DNA of 43,090 nucleotides from a virus (taxonomy: Duplodnaviria; Caudoviricetes): positions 1-43,090 of IMG/VR virus record IMGVR_UViG_3300032255_000004. One strand, written 5' to 3'. Of this stretch, positions 938 through 38,336 are shown piece after piece. The notes under the pieces were generated by a model that was not told the DNA's origin, did no database searches, and saw nothing but the letters and a program-made list of their open reading frames with translations. Numbering within the stretch: position 1 is the stretch's first letter; each line of letters opens with the position of its first letter. A program made the translations under genes and the position numbers.

Positions 938-1636
938 TTAAGCTTTAGCTTTAGCCTTAGGTGTAGCTTTAGCCTTAGGTGTAGCCTTAGCCTTAGGTGT
1001 AGCCTTAGCCTTAGGTGTAGCCTTAGCCTTAGCCTTAGGTGTAGGTTTAGCCGCTACTACTACAGGTTTAGCTTCACTTTGATCACCACTGTATTTTTTA
1101 AGTAACGCCTCAAGTTCAGATTTAAAGGTGTCGTTAACTTCCTTATTCGCTTGCTTTAACTTATCGCTATCCTCTGCGCTGGTATAACGTTTGATGTTAC
1201 CTAGGCAAGCTTTGATCAGATCGATCTCAGGTGTTGCGGTGCCAATCTTATCATGTAAGTACCAAGGTTTTTGAAGTACCTTCTCATTAACCTTGAGCTT
1301 GGTACTATTACTGAACTTCACGAATTTTAGTTCACCTTTGATTTTACGGAAGGCGAAACCTTGCACCAAAGCTAAGATATAGTTACGCAGTGTTTGCGAT
1401 CTCATACCTTGTCCGTATGTTTGTCCAGCCTGATCCATTAGGAAGTTGAATACCTCTGGATTGTTTGAACCGTTCACCTTGAAGTGATCCAATCCGTACA
1501 CTACAACGTTTTGGATGTTATCTTGTATACTACCGTTGGCCGTAAACGCAGCACATGCTACTTGTTTCCAGTTTTCTGCGTTAACTTCTACGTTGCCAGT
1601 TGATACCGCTTGCAATAACTTTTTTGTTAGTTTCAT
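938..1636 (-). CDS. Early protein with histone-H1-like Lys/Ala/Pro C-terminal tail
   Basis: AGGTG RBS before ATG at 1636; C-terminus PKAKAKATPKAKATPKAKATPKAKATPKAKAKA; followed by a terminator. Confidence 0.8.
   Translation of the reverse strand: MKLTKKLLQAVSTGNVEVNAENWKQVACAAFTANGSIQDNIQNVVVYGLDHFKVNGSNNPEVFNFLMDQAGQTYGQGMRSQTLRNYILALVQGFAFRKIKGELKFVKFSNSTKLKVNEKVLQKPWYLHDKIGTATPEIDLIKACLGNIKRYTSAEDSDKLKQANKEVNDTFKSELEALLKKYSGDQSEAKPVVVAAKPTPKAKAKATPKAKATPKAKATPKAKATPKAKAKA
941..1045 (-). repeat. 18-bp tandem repeat encoding (TPKAKA)n
   Basis: Repeated ttagccttaggtgtagcc-type units on the + strand. Confidence 0.9.
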
Positions 1637-1697
1637 TTTGTTCACCTATTAAAAGATTAAGAATCCCATAAACAGTACGTTTATTTCGTATGCTAAA

Positions 1698-2236
1698 AAG
1701 CATATTGAAGCGCACCACAAACATAGTGATACGCTTAGTATATGATTTCTAACGCTTGCCCATTAACCTGTCCTTATGGTCTAGGCCCACGATGGAAGTA
1801 TATCCCGCTTCCATTACGGTCGAATTGTTTTTGACTAACTACAGTCGCAGTAACAATTTAACTGCTATCGGTAGTGTTTATCCACTCAAGTTTATTCGTT
1901 ATTCCAACCCACCGAACACCTAACAACTATCGTTTTATACGTCACTCCTGAACTTGCTAGATTCATTAGGACTTGCTATCGCTAAACATGCTCAAAGAGT
2001 GACCTGATCACATGCCTGATAACTTGGTGTTATGTAAGCTTACTAGAACTTTCAACTGGTACAATGTGCTGTATTGTACCACTACCTAGGCCCGCCAGTT
2101 TTTTTCAAGGGGCGGCACCTATTAACTTGCCGATTTAACGGCTATCTATTTCTACCTATGAAACTTGCCTTGTGCTAAGCGACACGACACTGAATAAAAG
2201 ACATACATTGTACGGCCCATAGTTAGTGCTTCAGAC
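1698..2236 (-). ncRNA. Candidate structured non-coding RNA or long structured 5' leader
   Basis: No ORF of 60 aa or more; many stems (1708-18/1726-36 pairs fully only on the minus strand using G.U; 1792-98/1808-14; 1941-47/1997-2003; 2057-65/2073-81); TAGCAT -10-like hexamer at 2243-2248. Confidence 0.5.
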
Positions 2237-2244
2237 TTTAAATG

Positions 2245-2439
2245 CTACCCTGTACAAAAGTACCAAGCGCATATTAAGACACTAGCTAGTGAAGAAATGG
2301 AAAGTAACTGAATTGTTAAAGAACGTGCCCCGATGGACGCTAGATATATAGCATATCCCGTGCCAACAATTATTTTATTCAATAGAATCAATAGTTTAGC
2401 TGTAATAACCTTACTAATAGTATGGATGATAGCATTCAA
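2245..2439 (-). CDS. Small hypothetical membrane protein (64 aa)
   Basis: TTG start with AAGGT upstream; two hydrophobic segments. Confidence 0.4.
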   Translation of the reverse strand: MNAIIHTISKVITAKLLILLNKIIVGTGYAIYLASIGARSLTIQLLSISSLASVLICAWYFCTG

Positions 2440-2452
2440 TAATTACCTTAGT

Positions 2453-2565
2453 TGTAAAGAAACCCGACAGTGCTAAGTGTATGATTCTATTAACAATGGT
2501 AATAATACTTCCCTTAATACATAGGTTTTATAACACCTTGAACTGTAAAGAAACCCGACAGTGCT
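2453..2565. repeat. Two exact 22-bp direct repeats TGTAAAGAAACCCGACAGTGCT
   Basis: Copies at 2453-2474 and 2544-2565. Confidence 0.9.
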
Positions 2566-2612
2566 TTGAGGGTAGCATTGGCATTAATATATAAGGAAAC
2601 GCGTACACGTGT

Positions 2613-2629
2613 AGCAAGGTCTATGCCAA
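2613..2629 (-). promoter_or_regulatory. sigma54 (-24/-12) consensus site, leftward
   Basis: Minus strand TTGGCATAGACCTTGCT = GG-N10-GC, matching YTGGCACGNNNNTTGCW. Confidence 0.65.
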
Positions 2630-2785
2630 CCTGTAAAATAAGTAATCACACTGTACATACGTACATTCCCATAAAAGGCTCTGTACGTCACTCAGAGCTA
2701 TTAACTATTTTCTGGTGTACTTTCCTGAATAAAAACTGATCGTACAATGTAGGTACCTTACAGGCTGAATTCGCTGTTTTCAGAG

Positions 2786-2824
2786 AGTGAATAATTATTC
2801 AGTATCTGTGCATAAGTATTCAAT
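2786..2824. promoter_or_regulatory. Tandem ARG boxes (ArgR operator)
   Basis: agTGAATAATTATTCAgt (2786-2803) and tgTGCATAAGTATTCAat (2807-2824): two 18-bp boxes separated by 3 bp, the canonical gammaproteobacterial ArgR operator geometry. Confidence 0.7.
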
Positions 2825-2834
2825 AGCTGTAATG

Positions 2835-2894
2835 TTGGCATGAGTATTGCTAGGTACTAAGTGAATACCTATTGGCATGAGTATTGCTAGGTAC
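2835..2894 (+). promoter_or_regulatory. Two exact 23-bp direct repeats, each containing a rightward sigma54 consensus site
   Basis: TTGGCATGAGTATTGCTAGGTAC at 2835-2857 and 2872-2894; GG-N10-GC spacing is exact. Confidence 0.7.
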
Positions 2895-3337
2895 AATCAC
2901 TGTATAGATATACATATAATCAATAGGTATCAGGTGCTATACCTAAGTGGCTCGCTTGCGAGCGTCCCCATATACAAAACAACAACTTACAGCACATAGC
3001 ACCCGTCAGGATGCAAGGTCACTCAGGAATCCATTCCATTCGTTCTTCACTCAGTTCACAGGCACCCCACCCCTCGGGGGTCTTGTTCTGTGGTTGTAGA
3101 GTGCATAGCCCCCCAGAAATTTCTACAAAAAATATCAAACCAGAGATTCTCTCCGAGGTGTGAGTACCCCGCTCTAGGGGTGCGACCATCCTTGGCGTGC
3201 TCTTCATCTCTTCGTCCCAACGGGACGTTCTCCCTTGAACGCTCTAAAGGACTTATTTAACTATTTTTAACTATTTAACACTGGAATTGAACTTTCTTCA
3301 ACTGAAAGTTGTCTAATCTATATGACCATATAATTAT

Positions 3338-3401
3338 TCAGGTATTTAGTACTAATTAAATAATTAAATAGCTAATTAAATAAGTACTAGTACATACCTG
3401 A
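3338..3401. repeat. AT-rich inverted repeat enclosing three TAATTAAA units
   Basis: TCAGGTAT..TAGTACT / AGTACTA..ATACCTGA arms around ctaattaaataattaaatagctaattaaata. Confidence 0.7.
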
Positions 3402-3451
3402 TCTTCTCTCGAAGAGAGGCTTTACTACAGAGACCTTACTAAGGGGAACGC

Positions 3452-3703
3452 TTGAACCATATCTTGAGTCCTTTCATAGGTAAGTTAGTTCAACTAGGAA
3501 TCCCCGGACAGTACACCTGTTATGGATACCTCAGAGAAGTTCAGGAAGACCAGAGCTACCAGTACGGAGATGCCCCTGCTGATACCCTGATTGTACTAGA
3601 AGTACATGACCCTGAGTTAGTCACATCAAACAACCCAGACGAACCTGAGCATTGGACAGTACATTGCTTCAGTTCAGATATCTCACTAATTCCCCTTCAC
3701 TAA
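3452..3703 (+). CDS. Hypothetical protein, first gene of the structural arm
   Basis: 83-aa ORF, TTG start with AAGGGG RBS, genome-typical codon usage. Confidence 0.65.
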   Translation: MNHILSPFIGKLVQLGIPGQYTCYGYLREVQEDQSYQYGDAPADTLIVLEVHDPELVTSNNPDEPEHWTVHCFSSDISLIPLH

Positions 3704-3712
3704 GAGTACATA

Positions 3713-6007
3713 ATGGCTAAGTACACACCATCTGGTAACGTAAGAACTAAAGCTGACTTCAATGCTGAATTCCAAAAGATCAAGGTAGCTATTGATTCCC
3801 AGTTAGATCGGGAGTCCAGTAGTTCTAATCAGATGGAAACTCCACTGGATATGAACAGTCAGCGAATTTTGAATCTACCTGTACCTGTAAATCCAACAGA
3901 TGTTGTACGGGTTAAAGATGTCAGCGATCTTGTGTTCCAGACCCAGTTATCTTATGTCCAAGAGGATGTTCCTACTGAGGTAAGTTTAGAAGGCTCACGT
4001 TGGTACAAACCCTCTTTAGCTACTACATTCGTGTACTACACAGATCAGTCAGGCGATAAGTACTGGGTAGAAGAGCCTGTTGCAGTATGTGACCCTCTTG
4101 AACAAGCCTCTGAGTTAACTACAGATTCATTAATTCTGAGTACAGAAGTGTACGGGACAGGGACCTCTTTAACTACAACAGGGTACAGTGCTGTAGGTGA
4201 TGGTGGCGGTGCTCAATGGGTATCTACAGCAGTAACGGGACAGACCCCTAGTCAAACACCAGCGCAGCTAGGTGATGCACTACTTAACGATGCTAATGGC
4301 GTTCAATGGTCGCTAGTTTCAGGAGGGTCAGTTAATGTAGATACGTTGGGTGCTGTTGGTGACGGGATTGCTGACGATACTGCTGTATTCACTGCCGCAG
4401 CGAAAGGATCTATTTCAGCTAAAACGCTTACACAAGGGCGTCTTGTCAGATCCGATAGCGCATCTGTGTATGTCCCTGCTGGCAATTACAACATCACAAG
4501 TGTAGTAGATACAGACGGAGTACAAATACGTTGGATCATGGCTAACGGTGCTGTAATCCCTAATCTGTCAGTTAGTGACGAGCCTCTGGATTCGGACGCT
4601 ACATACGATCAAAACCCTGCTTATCTGTTTGGATCTATCTCTTACGATGATAAAAGGGTGTTTCTGCGTCCTTGCGGTAGTCGTGATTTTAATGCTGGAT
4701 TCACTGCTCAAGTATCAGGCAACCCTCAACGGGGAGCAGAGATAACGGGTTTCAGTGATTACACATCTGTTGCCAACTATGCAGATCGAGACGCTGTTGG
4801 TATCTACAGCGACGCTTACGCTGACCCTAATGAACAGATACTTATTGATCCTGTTACGTCATACACTGATACTAGGGTTAATCTTCCTGCGCCTTTAACG
4901 TCTAACCAAGTTGCTAGACTGCGCGTAGGTATGATGTTGGATACACGCCATACAGGCGCTAAGTTCACGGGTACAGTCACTGACTGGGACGATTCAGGGA
5001 ACTGGATTGATGTCGAGGGCTGGTACGCAATGGGTGACACGTCTGACGGTCAAATACCGGGCGGTAATACAGGTATCCTGATCAACCCAGTAACTAAAGT
5101 GTGGGGAATGAACACACAGATAAAAATACCTACTACGTCTTATGCTCACGCTGGATCAGGTATGGAGATCGGCATCAGCGACTGGAAAGCTGAGTCGGAG
5201 CAGTTCGATACTGGCAGAGATATAGCGGTAGATAACAGTCCCCACTATGTTTGGGGCATGCACATTACAAACTTCACAAGTAATAAAATGCAAGCACATT
5301 TAGTGTTAGATGGTCCGAGCTGGTACGCTATCCAGACTAATGCCAACGTTAGTAATGGCTTCAGGTATAGAGGTGGAGGTTCAGCTTTAATTACTCAAAA
5401 TGACTCCCTGACTACTCGTGGCCGTGTTTTAAATAGTGGCCGATACTTCCTTGAAGAGCAGACGGCTACCGTAACAGCTACCCCTGACGAAAACCCAGCG
5501 AACTCATTTTACTGGGACACTGCACTTAAATTCAACACCGCAAGTGGTCCTACAATGGAGTTAGGTAGGCAGTACGACGCATCAACGCCTGTGATTAATT
5601 TCCACCAGAGCGGTGGCAATATTAATTATGATACACGTATTCGAACTACTAACGGCGATGGGGCTACTGACGGTAATGGTTTCCTCTGGCTAGAAGCAGA
5701 TGGTACGTCAGGACGTGTGTATCTAGACGCTGACGATGTTATTGTTAATAACGCTACTCGACTTAGACCTGCGGATAACAACGCAACAAAGAACGGCGAT
5801 ACAAGTAACAGGTGGTCTGAAACTTACTCTGTTGAATTTCGGCCCGGCACTGTTGGTGATGTGGTGTGGACTAGTGGTACAGGCAGCCCCGAAGGTGTAG
5901 TAACAGCACCAGTAGGGTCTATGTTTACTAGAAGAGATGGTGGGGCCTCTACCACTCTATACGTCAAAGAATCTGGATCAGGCAATACGGGATGGGTCGC
6001 TAAATAA
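3713..6007 (+). CDS. Tail fibre / tailspike 1 (virion-anchored)
   Basis: N-terminal anchor with LDMNSQRILNLPVPVNPTDVV motif; LGAVGDGIADDTAVF tailspike entry motif; C-terminal SGTGSPEGVVTAPVGS..TGW motif typical of phage fibres. Confidence 0.85.
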   Translation: MAKYTPSGNVRTKADFNAEFQKIKVAIDSQLDRESSSSNQMETPLDMNSQRILNLPVPVNPTDVVRVKDVSDLVFQTQLSYVQEDVPTEVSLEGSRWYKPSLATTFVYYTDQSGDKYWVEEPVAVCDPLEQASELTTDSLILSTEVYGTGTSLTTTGYSAVGDGGGAQWVSTAVTGQTPSQTPAQLGDALLNDANGVQWSLVSGGSVNVDTLGAVGDGIADDTAVFTAAAKGSISAKTLTQGRLVRSDSASVYVPAGNYNITSVVDTDGVQIRWIMANGAVIPNLSVSDEPLDSDATYDQNPAYLFGSISYDDKRVFLRPCGSRDFNAGFTAQVSGNPQRGAEITGFSDYTSVANYADRDAVGIYSDAYADPNEQILIDPVTSYTDTRVNLPAPLTSNQVARLRVGMMLDTRHTGAKFTGTVTDWDDSGNWIDVEGWYAMGDTSDGQIPGGNTGILINPVTKVWGMNTQIKIPTTSYAHAGSGMEIGISDWKAESEQFDTGRDIAVDNSPHYVWGMHITNFTSNKMQAHLVLDGPSWYAIQTNANVSNGFRYRGGGSALITQNDSLTTRGRVLNSGRYFLEEQTATVTATPDENPANSFYWDTALKFNTASGPTMELGRQYDASTPVINFHQSGGNINYDTRIRTTNGDGATDGNGFLWLEADGTSGRVYLDADDVIVNNATRLRPADNNATKNGDTSNRWSETYSVEFRPGTVGDVVWTSGTGSPEGVVTAPVGSMFTRRDGGASTTLYVKESGSGNTGWVAK

Positions 6008-15165: not shown

Positions 15166-15539
15166 TGATGAATAGTTTACGATCAGTAGCTGAGTCTGTA
15201 CAGCGCCCTAACAGTGAAATCAACTTAGAGTTCACAGGTTACGGTTACAGATGGGTAGGGAAGTCAGTCCCTAGAAGTATGCAAGGTTTGTGGTTAAGTC
15301 CAGATGCGGCTGTCCAAGCTTCTAAGTCTTTTGAAAAAGAACTCACTAAGAAAGCAGAGCACAAGGCTAAGCATGTGAACGCAGAGATCACGGATCTAGA
15401 GCAACTCGATATTCTTACGCGTAAGCATGAGTTACTAGACTTTGCGGAGAGCCGTAACCTTGAAGTACCCTCAGATATCAAACAGCCTGCAAAGATTAAA
15501 AAACTTCTTAAAGAAACTCTGGAGGAAGCTAATGCCTAG
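15165..15539 (+). CDS. Hypothetical protein
   Basis: 124-aa coupled ORF in the tail module. Confidence 0.7.
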   Translation: MMNSLRSVAESVQRPNSEINLEFTGYGYRWVGKSVPRSMQGLWLSPDAAVQASKSFEKELTKKAEHKAKHVNAEITDLEQLDILTRKHELLDFAESRNLEVPSDIKQPAKIKKLLKETLEEANA

Positions 15540-16428
15540 AGCAGTCGGCTCCAAGGATTACACTAATCTTGCAAAGGGTTTGATCACAGAAAGCTCTGAG
15601 TTAGAGTTTCCTGACGGAGCGACTTCTGATGAGCTTAATTTCTTATTAGACTCGAAAGGTATTAAACGTGTTAAGCGTAAAGGTTTTGAGTTCATAGATT
15701 CTATCCCGTACGTTATGACTACTTTAGATTCATCTTCAGAAGTGAAGTACGGTGGTACAAAGTACTGGCAGAATGCTGATGTGTTCGTTAGTACGTTCTA
15801 TGACACTACGAACTTACATATTCAGATCCTATCGGGGGATGACTTCTCTGTACTAGGCAGCACAAGCTTCGGTACGGATGTCCCTACTGAAGATTTAGTT
15901 TCCATGGCCCCTTTAGCGGATTACTTCGTTATTATGTCAGGGAAAGGGAACACCCATACAGTCCTTGAGTACAAACAAGAAGTACCGAGTATTGATGTTA
16001 ATCTGTTCAATTTGTACCGTAGGGACTTCACCCTTGTGGACGATGGACTCGCATTGTCAGAGAGGCCGAGCAGCTTGAATAACGACCATGAGTACAACTT
16101 AGTTAATGCTGATTGGTACTCTACTCGTAAAGACTCGGGGGCTAACTTTGTAGATCCTGTAGCTCAGTTCTACACAGATTCAACTAATACAGAGTACCCT
16201 AGTAATTCTGATATAGCTAAACTTGGTTTGAAGGTAGACGGTTCAGGTAATGAAGTGTTCAGTAGAGATACTTTACTAGAGTCTCCTGTAGGTAACACTG
16301 AAGCAGCCCGTGGACATTTTGTGTACGCCCTGAATGATTTGAACCGTGAAGCACGTCGCCTGAATCCTTTGAATGACGGTGCTCCGAGTACAACAATCTC
16401 TTCTACTCTAACCACTATTAACCTTTAA
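15532..16428 (+). CDS. Tail tubular protein B / nozzle, N-terminal part
   Basis: Start corrected to ATG 15532 (GGAGG RBS); KGLITES..FP..RVKRKGF resembles the N-terminus of gp12/P22 gp10-type nozzle proteins. Confidence 0.6.
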   Translation: MPRAVGSKDYTNLAKGLITESSELEFPDGATSDELNFLLDSKGIKRVKRKGFEFIDSIPYVMTTLDSSSEVKYGGTKYWQNADVFVSTFYDTTNLHIQILSGDDFSVLGSTSFGTDVPTEDLVSMAPLADYFVIMSGKGNTHTVLEYKQEVPSIDVNLFNLYRRDFTLVDDGLALSERPSSLNNDHEYNLVNADWYSTRKDSGANFVDPVAQFYTDSTNTEYPSNSDIAKLGLKVDGSGNEVFSRDTLLESPVGNTEAARGHFVYALNDLNREARRLNPLNDGAPSTTISSTLTTINL

Positions 16429-16436
16429 GAGAACCG

Positions 16437-17723
16437 ATGGCAACTCAAAGTATTTCTCCAGCACCACAGAAACCTAGCGTAGTTGAGTCAGGGTTCGGTA
16501 GGTTTTTCTACGCAGCGAACTCTGTTATTTACTTCAGCCCGTTAGTACGAAGTATTGCAGATATAGGTCGTTGCTACCAAGTGAATGATCCTACCAGTGA
16601 CCAGATCAGTGACGTGTTAGCTACTGATGGTGGTGAGCTGAACATTGATGAAGCTGGGGGCATCGTTAAATTACTGAAGTTCCGTTATGGTATCTTGATC
16701 TTTGCAGAGAACGGTGTCTGGTACTTATCAGGCCCTGATGGTATTTTTTCAGCTACTTCATTCAGCTTATCTAAGGTTAGCTCTATGGGTTGTCTGTATC
16801 CCGATTCAGTTGTACTTGCAGAAAGTGCAGTGTTCTATTTCTCAGAAGAAGGTATTATTCGTTTATCTGAGAACGAGTTCAATGTAATCACTGACGAGGA
16901 CATCACCTTAACCACAATACGTTCACATTACATCGAGTTCTTTAATGGTGTGGATGTAGTTGGAAACTTCAAACCTACAACTAAAGAGGTCTGGTGGTGG
17001 CAGAAAGAGCTACAACCTGATCAACCCCCTATGCGTGTGGGCGGTACAAGCACCCCTCGGGGATTAGTCCTAGACTTAAAGGTTGGAGGTTTTTATCCTC
17101 AACAGGTAGATTCTTTCAAGAAGATATCGAAGGCTGTAACTAAGAATTCTGAGTACTACCACGTAGATTGGTCAACCTCACAGACTGATGTATCTGAGGT
17201 AACAATTACACCTAACCTCAAAGATAACACCGATTCTAGCTTCTCTGATGGAACTAACCCTCCGTACATTGCTTACCTAGAGACAGGCCCTGAGACATTA
17301 GGGAAATACGCTAACGGTAAATCGGTAATGGAAGCAAGCTTCTTCTTCAACCGTACAGAGACTCAGATCACTGATTACAATTGGGATACTGGTGTGTACA
17401 CTTATGATAAGCCTAGTGGCTGTTTCTTACAACTACGCTGGGACTTCGATGACTCGAACAGCGGTAATCGTTGGGTAGGTAGTACTCCGTTATGGCCAAT
17501 AGGTCCCAACTTTCGTGAGCTTCAGATATATAACCCGAACGTACGTGGCTTCATTCCTGATGCAATCCCCTCAGATTTCAGTGACGGGTACAGTACAGTA
17601 AGTCAACGTCAGAGACTCCGTGGGAGCGGGAGAGCCGTTAAGTTCCGGTTCGAGTCTGAAGATAATAAAGATATGCAAATGCTAGGCTATGCCGTAGCTT
17701 ATAGTGTTAAGGGGCGTATGTGA
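16437..17723 (+). CDS. Tail tubular protein B / nozzle, C-terminal part
   Basis: Beta-propeller-like motifs (GILIFAENGVWYLSG, VFYFSEEGI) and C-terminal LRGSGRAVKFRFES. Confidence 0.65.
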   Translation: MATQSISPAPQKPSVVESGFGRFFYAANSVIYFSPLVRSIADIGRCYQVNDPTSDQISDVLATDGGELNIDEAGGIVKLLKFRYGILIFAENGVWYLSGPDGIFSATSFSLSKVSSMGCLYPDSVVLAESAVFYFSEEGIIRLSENEFNVITDEDITLTTIRSHYIEFFNGVDVVGNFKPTTKEVWWWQKELQPDQPPMRVGGTSTPRGLVLDLKVGGFYPQQVDSFKKISKAVTKNSEYYHVDWSTSQTDVSEVTITPNLKDNTDSSFSDGTNPPYIAYLETGPETLGKYANGKSVMEASFFFNRTETQITDYNWDTGVYTYDKPSGCFLQLRWDFDDSNSGNRWVGSTPLWPIGPNFRELQIYNPNVRGFIPDAIPSDFSDGYSTVSQRQRLRGSGRAVKFRFESEDNKDMQMLGYAVAYSVKGRM

Positions 17724-35604: not shown

Positions 35605-35812
35605 CTTTTTTGCGTGCTTGAACACGGTACTGCACTTCAAGGTAAGTTAATTCCTCGTCGATACGTTCTTGGATAGGGTTAGCAAAGAGTAGTACCAGTG
35701 CTAGAACTATCCATGCGAAAAGTATGAACTCCAAAGGAAGGAACGCACTGATCATTATACCAAGGGCGCATAGCAGAATCATCCAAGGTTTATTGTTTAT
35801 TTTTAGTAGCAT
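35597..35812 (-). CDS. Small membrane protein (2 TM); start uncertain (35812 or 35782)
   Basis: WMILLCALGIMISAFLPLEFILFAWIVLALVLLFA hydrophobic hairpin. Confidence 0.6.
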   Translation of the reverse strand: MLLKINNKPWMILLCALGIMISAFLPLEFILFAWIVLALVLLFANPIQERIDEELTYLEVQYRVQARKKGE

Positions 35813-38336
35813 CCGGATTAATCTCAGGCGCATCGTTGTTCTCCTGTTCAGGTTCAAGTTCTTGTTCAGTCTTGTTCTCAGGATCAGCACTGTTGTCTGA
35901 CTTCTGAAGCTCAGTTAATCTGCCTGTGTTAGCGTTGTAAATCAGAGGTACTTTCCCAGACTCTCCGAAGTTACGGTCCTCAAGCATAGATAGAAATCTA
36001 AGATTTTTCTGTTCCGGTTGTTCAGGATCTTTGTTCCCTTCTAACCCGATCATGTAATAACAGCTTCGCATCATAGCTCTGGAGCCAGCGAACTGTACAC
36101 TTTGGACATGGCCACCACGTTCATGGGGCTTACCTGATTCGGGTTTATTCAAGTGGCAGAACACGTAGTACGTGAAATTCAATTCCTTACTCATGCTTGC
36201 CAGTTCTGAAGCGATCTCGACTAACCTTTCGTTAGCCTCACCTGAACCCATACCCACTGTTAAGCAAGTAATAGGGTCAATTACTACATCACGGACCCCT
36301 TCGGTGATACAGACGTTCCGGATCTCTGCCTTGAGGTCTTTCCACTCTGTCTTACCGTACTGTCCGTACATAATAGCCTTGCCACGGATGATGTTCTTCC
36401 CTCTAGCGAAGGCTCCTGCATCGAACTCAATGCGAGGATCATGGAACACTCGGTCTACTGCAACACCTGCTAACTTCTGTGCTGTTATTGCATTAGATTC
36501 CTCAGGTTTACATAAGAACACATCCAGCCCATGCTCTTTGATAAGGTGAGCAGCGAGTTCATTCACAACACAACTCTTACCCATTTTTACCTTTGTATTC
36601 AATAACTTACGCAACTAAGTTACCCGTTCTCTGATGAACTGCTGCATGTTTCCGTGCAGAATAGACTATATCATCAATCGTTAGATTGCTCACCGCTTCC
36701 ACCACCATAAGCTTGTGGTGTACTCTCTTTCGAGATAGTCGTTGAACTTTACCAAAAATAATCCCGAGAGATTTGCTTCCACGTCTTCCTTCGCCTTATA
36801 TCATCGAATTGATATTTAGTGCAAGAAGGTACTAAGTCTAAAATTTCCCCTCGTTTCATACCGAACGATATGAAAGAACAGATATCTTGAACCTCGTAAT
36901 CCGTTAACTTAGAATTAACGTGTTTCTCTCCCGACGCTCTAAGCTCTAAACTTAGAGCGTGTTGTTTATTTTCTGAACTTGTACACCATCCTAAATTATC
37001 AATACGATTGTCAAGCTTGTCACCGTTTATGTGATTTACTTCCATACCTTCTTGATAACCTATAAAGGTTTCAGCTACTAATCTATGAATAAAAAACCTA
37101 AAAGGCTTACCATCTTTAGATAAAGTAACTCTCTTATAACCACAATTATTTATATCAGGTTTTAATATTTTCCCAGTAACTAAGTTAAACACTAAACCTT
37201 CTTTAGTAATCGCGTACCTTTCAAAGTTTCTAATACTTCTTGATTCATTCATTCTAAACACCTCCTTAGTATTAGACAACTGGACTGGGTAAAAGTTCAC
37301 TGGTCTTAGCTGCTGATTGCCCTCGTCTTTACGTTAGGGGTTCCCAGCAATTCAATGAGTTTATAGCGGGCATGTATCCACCCGCTCCGAAGTAATAACC
37401 TTCACCCCTACGGATACCCCTAGTGAGGGTCGTAAGTCCCGGCCACGGCCACGACAGGCCGTCCTCTGGACGTTTCATAGCATCATCCCATACATCTGAG
37501 CTACGGACTAGCTTATCGCTCAATGGACGTTTAGCTTCCCACACGCAGGAGTTGAACAGTTCTTGCTCCCGACCTTCCATGAGCATATCGTGGGCATCTT
37601 TCAGACTGAAATTAGCTACAACAGCCTTCGGATACATCTTACAAAACGCTTGTGCCGCAGCCTTACCTGCTTCATCTTGGTCCCCGCAGTACACTACTTG
37701 CTTCCAACGGTCGAAGTCCTTGGTGTATTTAGACAACTTATCTACCGTTTTAGTTCCGTGGTGAAGACTAATAACTGCTGGCGGGCGGTCAGATTTGCCC
37801 CTTTCAGAGAGAACTTGGAACAAAGCTAGTGCGTCTTTCTGGCCCTCTGTTATGAACAGCTTGAACCCTCCAGCTTGCACTGCTTGATCCCATCCGAACG
37901 GGTCGCACTCCTGTACATCCCCTATAAAGAAGAACCGTTTATCAGGGACAGTCCGCGCTTGGAATGCTTGAACTTTACCTTGAGCTGTGTACGGGTAGTA
38001 ATGCGACTGAACTACGGAGGCTGTCTCTTGGTCGTAACCTAGACGGACACCGAAATGCTGCATCACATGCTTCTTGATTTTTAAGTCAGGGAGTCCCTCT
38101 ATCGGGAGCTTCTTGATGAACTCGACCTCTTTCTGGATCTGTTCAGGTGATTTACGTTGTGGTTCAGGTGGCGTGTACGATGCGTCTTTGTCACTGTACG
38201 GGTCCTTTACATGAGTATGGCAGGAGAAGCAATAGCCTGTGTACCTACCGTCATCTTCCCTGAAGACCTGTAACCCTCTCGTTGTGCCGCATGAATGCGG
38301 TAATCTTTCTACGTACTTACCTCGTTGCTTTTCCAT
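35790..38336 (-). CDS. Primase-helicase (T7 gp4-like), spliced: exon 1 38336-37380 plus exon 2 36590-35790, 585 aa
   Basis: Zn finger (HSC...CFSC), TOPRIM (ITEGQKDA, GDQDEAG), DnaB-like helicase motifs (VIDPI, CHLNK, FAGSR). Walker A GAG|VKMGKS is restored only by joining the two ORFs. Confidence 0.93.
36591..37379 (-). mobile_element. Group I self-splicing intron (789 nt, IA-like)
   Basis: Exon ends in U and intron ends in G; P1 AGCGGGU/GCCCGCU with U.G at the splice site; P AAUUGCUGGGAA (37341-52), Q AAUCAGCAG (37310-18), R GUUCAACGACUA (36736-47), S GAUGAUAUAGUCU (36663-75); P3 CUCAUUG/CGGUGAG; P7 GACUA/UAGUC. Confidence 0.93.
36749..37252 (-). CDS. Intron-encoded HNH homing endonuclease (NUMOD4/HNH, I-HmuI-like)
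   Basis: AAGGAGG RBS before ATG 37252; IHRLVAETF..VNHINGDKLDNRIDNLGWCTSSEN; AT-rich relative to flanks; lies between Q and R (P6 region). Confidence 0.9.
   Translation of the reverse strand: MNESRSIRNFERYAITKEGLVFNLVTGKILKPDINNCGYKRVTLSKDGKPFRFFIHRLVAETFIGYQEGMEVNHINGDKLDNRIDNLGWCTSSENKQHALSLELRASGEKHVNSKLTDYEVQDICSFISFGMKRGEILDLVPSCTKYQFDDIRRRKTWKQISRDYFW

Follow-up and report, generated by a model that had tools for sequence, protein, structure and literature searches.

We report that the non-coding DNA at the predicted first-entering end of an uncultured podophage genome carries a cluster of sigma54 -24/-12 boxes, an assignment that is well supported by sequence evidence, and that one of these boxes is joined to an alternating purine-pyrimidine tract in a composite element that spans several phage families. 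The explanation that we consider best, and to which we would give about an even chance, is that the sites would keep the host's sigma54-RNA polymerase parked at that end as a clamp that mostly does not fire. Our literature search, which did not extend to the original VpV262, RIO-1, CW02, PA11 and YuA papers, returned no description of the element. The new observations are its distribution in the Zobellviridae, the sigma54-plus-tract composite with its controls, the phage specificity of the composite, and a negative result in the phage PAK_P3.

The phage and its gene content

The window analysed here is the whole contig of 43,090 nucleotides, which is permuted and about 94% complete. It is an uncultured podophage of the Zobellviridae type, with a head and tail module of the T7 supergroup, Pol A, a primase-helicase, divergent arms, no RNA polymerase gene, and terminase kin in the family. 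Its terminase is 47-51% identical to those of RIO-1, HP1 and oyster/Vibrio 1.293.O-like phages and 65-73% identical to those of IMG/VR contigs. The phage is present in microbial-mat metagenomes, and no RNA dataset is listed among those that contain it; the contigs of four mat metagenomes showed no variants, no terminus and no extension, and megablast found no close relatives. A complete close relative, G010, shares 69% terminase identity and the same divergent pair of sites. Some of the early arm present in relatives is missing from the window.

The absence of a recognisable RNA polymerase, sigma factor or activator, which the original prediction had stated, was confirmed: neither the ~94% complete contig nor the complete G010 yielded any of these genes or one for a sigma54-like DNA-binding protein. 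An ECF-like sigma gene of the phiEco32 type between primase-helicase and polymerase is absent from the window. None of 34 records held a phage activator above the PF00158 cut-off, and no gene family among 1,803 ORFs of 26 genomes tracked the sigma54 sites across lineages. Relatives of the first early gene, gp1 (Table 1), occur with and without sigma54 sites, and the site-free RIO-1 and ICP2 have it.

Several other features of the genes were recorded. The tail of gp1 (938-1090) consists of histone-like proline/lysine/alanine repeats that derive from 18/12-nt DNA repeats, and it is absent among the gp1 relatives listed. The primase-helicase gene (35790-38336, minus strand) is interrupted by an HNH endonuclease ORF (36749-37300), which is probably a mobile intron; the primase-helicase gene of RIO-1 carries a group I intron. 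The tail appendage phrog_8094 is encoded by two ORFs (15442-17723, plus strand), as in RIO-1.

Sigma54 sites between the divergent arms

The pattern TGGCA-N6-TTGCW has three exact matches in the window, at 2613-2628 (minus strand), 2836-2851 and 2873-2888 (both plus strand). The mean in the shuffled window is 0.08, and three matches were reached in none of 100 shuffles. All three sites lie in the non-coding gap of 1.8 kb (1646-3451) between the divergent arms and have the exact GG-N10-GC spacing, that is, GG(-24) and GC(-12) at 10-nt spacing within TGGCAY-N5-TTGCW. The original prediction of three consensus sites with this spacing, the minus-strand one pointing into the early arm, therefore stands. 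The two plus-strand sites are not independent of each other, since both belong to one duplicated 23-nt unit. A chance origin is ruled out by the shuffles together with the composite-pattern controls and the end-region enrichment described below; the identification as sigma54 boxes draws on the exact spacing, conservation in the family, the control with a spacer longer by one, and a consensus G. Start sites were predicted by the rule of 19 bp from the motif centre, taken from the relevant part of PMC4591121.

Table 1. Features in and around the gap between the divergent arms of the window
Feature	Positions	Strand	Remarks
First early gene gp1, phrog_14737, with lysine/alanine-rich tail	938..1645	-	only unnamed look-alikes
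boxA antitermination element, rrn-type (presumed)	2311..2324	-	+16 of fourth site
Fourth putative sigma54 site TTGGCACGGGATATGCT	2350..2366	-	one base off the pattern; missing from the original prediction; predicted +1 at 2339
Exact IHF consensus WATCAANNNNTTR	2386..2398	+	-47 to -59 of fourth site
Extended -10-like sigma70 element TGCTATCAT	2426..2434	-	possible non-sigma54 early start
22-nt direct repeat, copy 1 (TGT-N11-ACA dyad)	2453..2474		-114 to -135 of fourth site; no strand assigned
22-nt direct repeat, copy 2	2544..2565		-205 to -226 of fourth site; no strand assigned
Alternating purine-pyrimidine tract, 15 nt	2599..2613	-	begins at -11 of the 2613 site and spans its melting region
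Sigma54 -24/-12 site	2613..2629	-	faces early arm; predicted +1 at 2602
Sigma54 site, copy 1 of 23-nt direct repeat	2835..2857	+	predicted +1 at 2862; faces predicted terminal repeat
Sigma54 site, copy 2 of 23-nt direct repeat	2872..2894	+	37 nt further on; predicted +1 at 2899
Terminus motif TGCA/TAGC..C..A.ATTTCT (slash, boundary)	3101..3129	+	predicted boundary 3105/3106, repeat running leftwards

By its letters the tract at the 2613 site is Z-DNA-prone, being a CG/CA-rich alternating run of at least 12 nt. The position of this site and its downstream tract recur in 1.293.O, 275E43-1, 1.208.B, 172P1 and PA11, where the tract measured from -11 is 15 nt long in 1.293.O, 275E43-1 and PA11 and 30 nt long in 1.208.B and 172P1.

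The fourth site has an A/T-rich melting region and is the only site of the window with an exact IHF box upstream (consensus from the pertinent section of PMC2709558). The element just downstream of its predicted start, which we take to be a boxA, has counterparts in 13 of the 28 end regions of the family, in the early leader, including those of G010, PA11, CW02, VpV262 and Pecta, often some 15-25 nt beyond a predicted start. The 22-nt repeats further upstream are a candidate activator site. With this layout the fourth site is the best candidate for an active promoter, and it probably fires, with a host activator, both if the sites mainly park polymerase and if they are working promoters.

Sigma70 promoters are no more frequent in the gap than expected: two were found compared to 5.8 by chance, with a best score of 9.4 compared to 10.7 in shuffles. 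The extended -10-like element TGCTATCAT occurs at about chance frequency, by a rough estimate. The gap contains no DnaA array, only a single loose match to a DnaA box, and Rfam gave no significant match across 1600-3720 of the window. The early leader (1646-2339, minus strand, ~700 nt) folds better than its shuffles (z=-2.6). Boxes that we take to be LexA-like occur at 2651-2666 and 2900-2915 with one mismatch, and exact ones occur in G010 and in PQ867850, where the box overlaps the predicted sigma54 start. A 21-nt element upstream of the late arm (3184-3204), a candidate late-promoter or packaging signal, is identical in G004/G010 and absent from other relatives.

The predicted genome end

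The stretch 3101-3129 matches a motif that RIO-1 and VpV262 carry at their annotated terminal-repeat boundaries, and the early virion end is therefore predicted, by homology, at ~3105. A conserved motif, TGCA/T..CACC..A.ATTT.T, predicts terminal-repeat boundaries across the Zobellviridae. The boundary profile was seeded on four sites (RIO-1, VpV262, the window and G010); for 21 of the 28 end regions its top hit was accepted, and the other seven boundaries were placed by eye, three of them doubtfully.

Measured from the predicted end, the minus-strand sites lie 476 nt (2613) and 739 nt (2350) inside and face the early genes, and the plus-strand pair, at 234 and 271 nt inside, is directed outward, probably into the terminal repeat given the predicted end. 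Most terminal repeats in the family measure 74-138 bp, with one member at 711 bp, according to the part of PMC9960094 consulted, so the pair itself is probably outside the repeat. By analogy with T7, the early end would enter the cell first. The original prediction had the plus pair pointing into the structural arm. This is correct for the permuted contig and probably incorrect for linear virion DNA, as the predicted terminus falls between the pair and the first late gene. On incoming DNA the pair would probably not act as a simple late promoter.

The geometry can also be read in terms of transcription. The four sites may all be working sigma54 promoters served by a host activator, with the inward pair driving the early arm and the outward pair driving the late arm after repeat-mediated joining of the genome ends, which would couple late expression to replication; in a variant, the repeat extends far enough to contain the outward pair, which then serves the late arm directly, and the 711-bp repeat of one family member gives some room for this. 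We regard this explanation as possible though doubtful. It is favoured by the lack of a sigma70 promoter above chance in the gap, by the fact that neither the window nor G010 has a phage sigma or a late promoter of the sigma70 type, and by the textbook anatomy of the fourth site; the extended -10 element at 2434 counts against it.

Distribution of the sites in the Zobellviridae

For comparison, 32 further genomes or contigs of the family were fetched, and of the resulting 33, five with a seemingly incomplete end region were dropped (G001, PQ867846, PQ867849, VP41s3 and 1.015.O). An inward site was defined by a score of at least 11/13 on the sigma54 consensus. Inward sites are present in 11 of the 28 end regions, at 229-739 nt from the predicted end: in the window, G004/G010 (one phage), PQ867850, 1.293.O, 275E43-1, 1.208.B, 172P1, PQ867844, PA11 and VpV262, the last with four tandem sites just inside its terminal repeat. 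The other 17 end regions have none. Sites scoring at least 12/13 are enriched 44-fold in end regions (14 in 47,347 nt compared with 8 in 1,189,675 nt, in 27 genomes). A single origin of the sites in the family is unsupported: their distribution requires six changes when set on the terminase tree.

Three lineages have outward sites, namely the window, G004/G010 and VpV262, and none of them has a phage sigma, another point for working promoters. Early sigma70 promoters are weaker in site-bearing phages (median score 10.2 compared to 13.2, p=0.002, kin not corrected), and phage ECF-type sigmas (E<=0.01) are found in 2 of 11 site-bearing and 11 of 17 site-free phages. Both differences are what working promoters predict, and both speak against parking. 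Strict exclusion between phage sigma and sigma54 sites was considered and rejected; PA11 and PQ867850 have both. The 17 site-free relatives also weigh against parking, and they imply that the sites are dispensable or replaced.

Other signals were seen in the same regions. Boxes of the form TGTTA-N5-TAACA, presumably Zur-like, and presumably Fur-like boxes occur in the end regions of G004/G010, PQ867844, CVT22 and ICBM2, and also at the loci L144 and L196. The late ends of 1.293.O, 275E43-1, 1.208.B, 172P1 and ICBM2 carry perfect or near-perfect sigma70 promoters back to back, one of them facing the terminal repeat.

A composite element in viral sequences

The composite of sigma54 box and tract is present at at least 119 IMG/VR loci (~160 estimated), with 90 distinct 40-mers among the matches listed; few of the listed loci are Zobellviridae. 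As controls, the same pattern with a spacer longer by one gave no match in IMG/VR, and a non-alternating tract gave one. Prokaryotic genomes in GTDB gave 20 matches in 596 Gb, two of which resemble viral loci (L163/L175 and L181) and so may be prophages. Several of the GTDB matches (L260, L261, L264, L272, L275, L278 and L279), most of them with Clostridia-type labels, have tracts of 24-33 nt.

Two properties that the search pattern did not impose were observed. The position after TGGCAY is G, the sigma54 consensus base, in 77% of the listed viral copies, and the alternation extends past the pattern, reaching at least 15 nt at 65 of the 90 listed distinct loci compared to the forced 12. Unselected sigma54 sites of host genomes have runs of only 1-2 in all eight of a small sample. 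Among the loci listed, the tract has a median run of 17 on the selected site compared to 3 at 74 other sites of the arrays.

Neighbouring boxes were counted in the 300 nt upstream of the 90 listed distinct loci and compared with shuffles. Extra sigma54 sites number 49 on the same strand (shuffles 0.9) and 19 on the opposite strand (1.3), and 13 of the 90 loci have a tandem site 36 nt upstream. DnaA boxes number 101, at 27 of the loci (shuffles 3.5), IHF boxes 13 (1.6) and boxes presumed to be LexA's 7 (0.1). At many listed loci the DnaA boxes are in 11-nt phase and an A/T-rich stretch follows the tract.

These neighbours suggest two further explanations. Replicated ends could act as a DNA sponge that titrates sigma54 holoenzyme, and elsewhere DnaA or LexA, and thereby reshapes host physiology. 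The multiplication of high-affinity boxes in non-coding DNA whatever their orientation is consistent with such a sponge, which leaves unexplained both the fixed end-proximal position and the confinement of long tracts to the selected site; we consider it unlikely. Alternatively, the element could be a replication origin, where a parked or briefly firing sigma54 polymerase opens the DNA or primes at the tract, aided by DnaA and IHF. The phased DnaA boxes, the IHF boxes and the A/T-rich stretch argue for an origin, and its short RNAs would escape long-read data. The window has its own primase-helicase and no DnaA array, and in PAK_P3 the replication skew starts at the termini (PMC13510664, sections consulted), both of which count against an origin, and we rate this explanation as improbable. 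The missing DnaA array in the window also tells against parking.

Proximity of the composite to contig ends is modest, about 2-fold (16 of 78 listed loci within 500 nt, 7.1 expected). Among 61 listed distinct loci of at least 1.5 kb, 16 are located divergently upstream of terminase genes or of an operon-heading lysin gene. Early-type genes, for example an anti-restriction protein and methyltransferases, lie downstream of the listed composites (proteins scanned: 93 of 97 upstream, many of one family, and 65 of 82 downstream). In an unrelated G+C-rich viral contig, G012, a small Sigma54_DBD protein (L092:12864-13241, plus strand; 24.2 bits, cut-off 22.8) adjoins the composite, and it is possibly a phage sigma54 mimic or repressor. 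Its gene lends some support to the idea that the boxes are operators for a phage protein with a sigma54-like DNA-binding domain instead of targets of host sigma54. That idea we judge very improbable: G012, which does not belong to the Zobellviridae, is the only one of the 34 records with such a gene above cut-off, and the spacing between complete -24 and -12 elements is strictly kept.

Named carriers and published transcription data

BLAST with three short queries matched mostly Vibrio and Pseudomonas phages, and no further group appeared with two additional queries. The named carriers differ in orientation and promoter context. In the T5-like River4, each terminal repeat contains four sites, and the one with the tract lies ~390 nt upstream of A2-A1. 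In Luke-3, of the Autographiviridae, a family with its own RNA polymerase, two outward sites at the left end stand ahead of sigma70 promoters and a boxA. In PAK_P3, a back-to-back pair of sites precedes an early sigma70 promoter by 70 nt.

The cappable-seq table for PAK_P3 in LB, as contained in the consulted part of PMC10914365, lists no start on either strand between 48,439 and 51,049, and therefore neither predicted sigma54 start (50,972, plus strand; 50,786, minus strand) was called. These are long-read data from one medium, in which short RNAs could be missed. The result argues against working promoters, as does the occurrence of the composite where sigma70 promoters, or membership of a family with a phage RNA polymerase, make it redundant.

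Other published observations bear on the position of the sites. According to the consulted sections of PMC13510664, the PAK_P3 termini are near 63 kb, which places them ~12 kb from the sites if the coordinates match; this and the only 2-fold enrichment at contig ends weigh against parking at ends. The same sections describe a 14-kb loop at 3 min after infection with anchors without genes or transcription, one of them at the termini. The second anchor could be the gap that holds the sites, again if the coordinates match.

Phage YuA has been reported to use sigma54 (bioRxiv 2023.10.13.562163, citing Ceyssens 2008, in the passages used), which is favourable to working promoters. Its start P015, labelled sigma54 in Table S3 of PMC10914365, is preceded by TTGACC-17-TACAAT, with no GG-N10-GC at -24/-12. 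In our own reading this is a sigma70-like layout, which counts against working promoters and makes the YuA precedent weaker than it sounds.

Proposed parking of the host holoenzyme

At boxes of this type the sigma54 holoenzyme stays inactive until an AAA+ activator acts, and pre-melting of the DNA is not known to bypass the activator. Firing without an activator by way of Z-DNA was therefore judged unlikely. A further reason is that bypass is rare in vivo, as stated in the abstract of PMC4551910; this, with no activator found, is also a point against working promoters. In the sections of PMC4591121 consulted, the holoenzyme is described as occupying promoters in an inactive state, with most E. 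coli sites apparently silent.

Binding to the sites would occur within seconds of entry and would require no phage gene product; it would thus hold the end in the cytoplasm, as a ratchet or an anchor, and cover it. The parked clamp would grip and shield the early-entering DNA, and the G+C-rich alternating tract might make the closed complex tighter, or lock it, at the -12/-11 junction. The motivation for reading the composite as a docking site is that its sequence is kept while its direction is not, that DnaA and IHF boxes are its neighbours, that it is redundant with other promoters, and that no start was seen where starts had been mapped. The terminus and the entry order are predicted by homology, which tempers the case for parking.

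The original prediction had offered a roadblock, a decoy or a DNA-entry anchor, besides a tie of transcription to a host sigma54 regulon, which may apply to the fourth site and to the late arm. Parked holoenzyme as decoy or entry anchor fits best, because the composite is found upstream of strong sigma70 early promoters, outward in Luke-3 and with no called start in PAK_P3. The roadblock is weakened: E. coli data exclude roadblock repression by intragenic sigma54 (the same sections of PMC4591121), and two PAK_P3 reads run past the outward site. A PAK_P3 read end at 50,787 was considered as a sign of a roadblock and dismissed, as reads of other promoters end at 50,630, 50,872 and 50,897.

The case for working promoters is at its strongest in the lineage of the window, where both a phage sigma and clear sigma70 promoters, early or late, are absent. 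A wider proposal, which we put forward tentatively, joins both functions: the composite, with its Z-DNA-prone tract and set in arrays of host-protein sites, would be a widespread phage cis-element that locks a non-transcribing sigma54 clamp and so ratchets and protects the first DNA, and in the window the neighbouring sites would run the early operon and then, after joining, the late operon.

Relation to known systems

The injection-stop region of T5 bears DnaA boxes, and phi29 has parS and Spo0A boxes; the window resembles both in having sites for host DNA-binding proteins in early-entering non-coding DNA. The differences are that the predicted factor here is the sigma54 holoenzyme, that the element spans several phage families, and that two-step entry is not known for this phage. 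T7 has the leftward promoter A0/D and the early promoters A1-A3 with a boxA. It is similar to the window in an outward RNA polymerase site near the entering end and a host-transcribed early leader with a boxA; unlike the sites here, the T7 promoters depend on sigma70 and need no activator to fire.

The inactive sigma54 sites that Bonocora et al. (2015; PMC4591121, sections as above) describe in E. coli have the same 17-mer motif and are occupied in ChIP yet mostly silent. In contrast, the window sites are clustered at a phage end, composite sites elsewhere are often in arrays, and one window site has the tract at -11. YuA is likewise a lytic phage without its own RNA polymerase and with reported use of host sigma54, but it is a siphovirus whose sigma54-labelled P015 is internal (38,492, upstream of gp55), and the passages of bioRxiv 2023.10.13.562163 considered mention no end array or tract. 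Zobellviridae relatives with phiEco32-type sigma switching (PMC9960094, in part) are also without a phage RNA polymerase and use the host enzyme throughout; the window contig and G010 differ in having no phage sigma.

Significance

It has long been asked how phages without an RNA polymerase of their own hold on to their first DNA, pull it in and protect it, and the use of host proteins as a DNA-entry ratchet is a model with few named sites. The element described here is a precise, mutable sequence in cultured phages that have laboratory hosts (PA11, GP100, PAK_P3, Luke-3, River4/Thalassa and VpV262), which makes the idea directly testable. If the sites fire, the whole programme of a lytic phage would hang on a host sigma54 activator and thus on the nitrogen, motility, quorum or envelope state of the cell.
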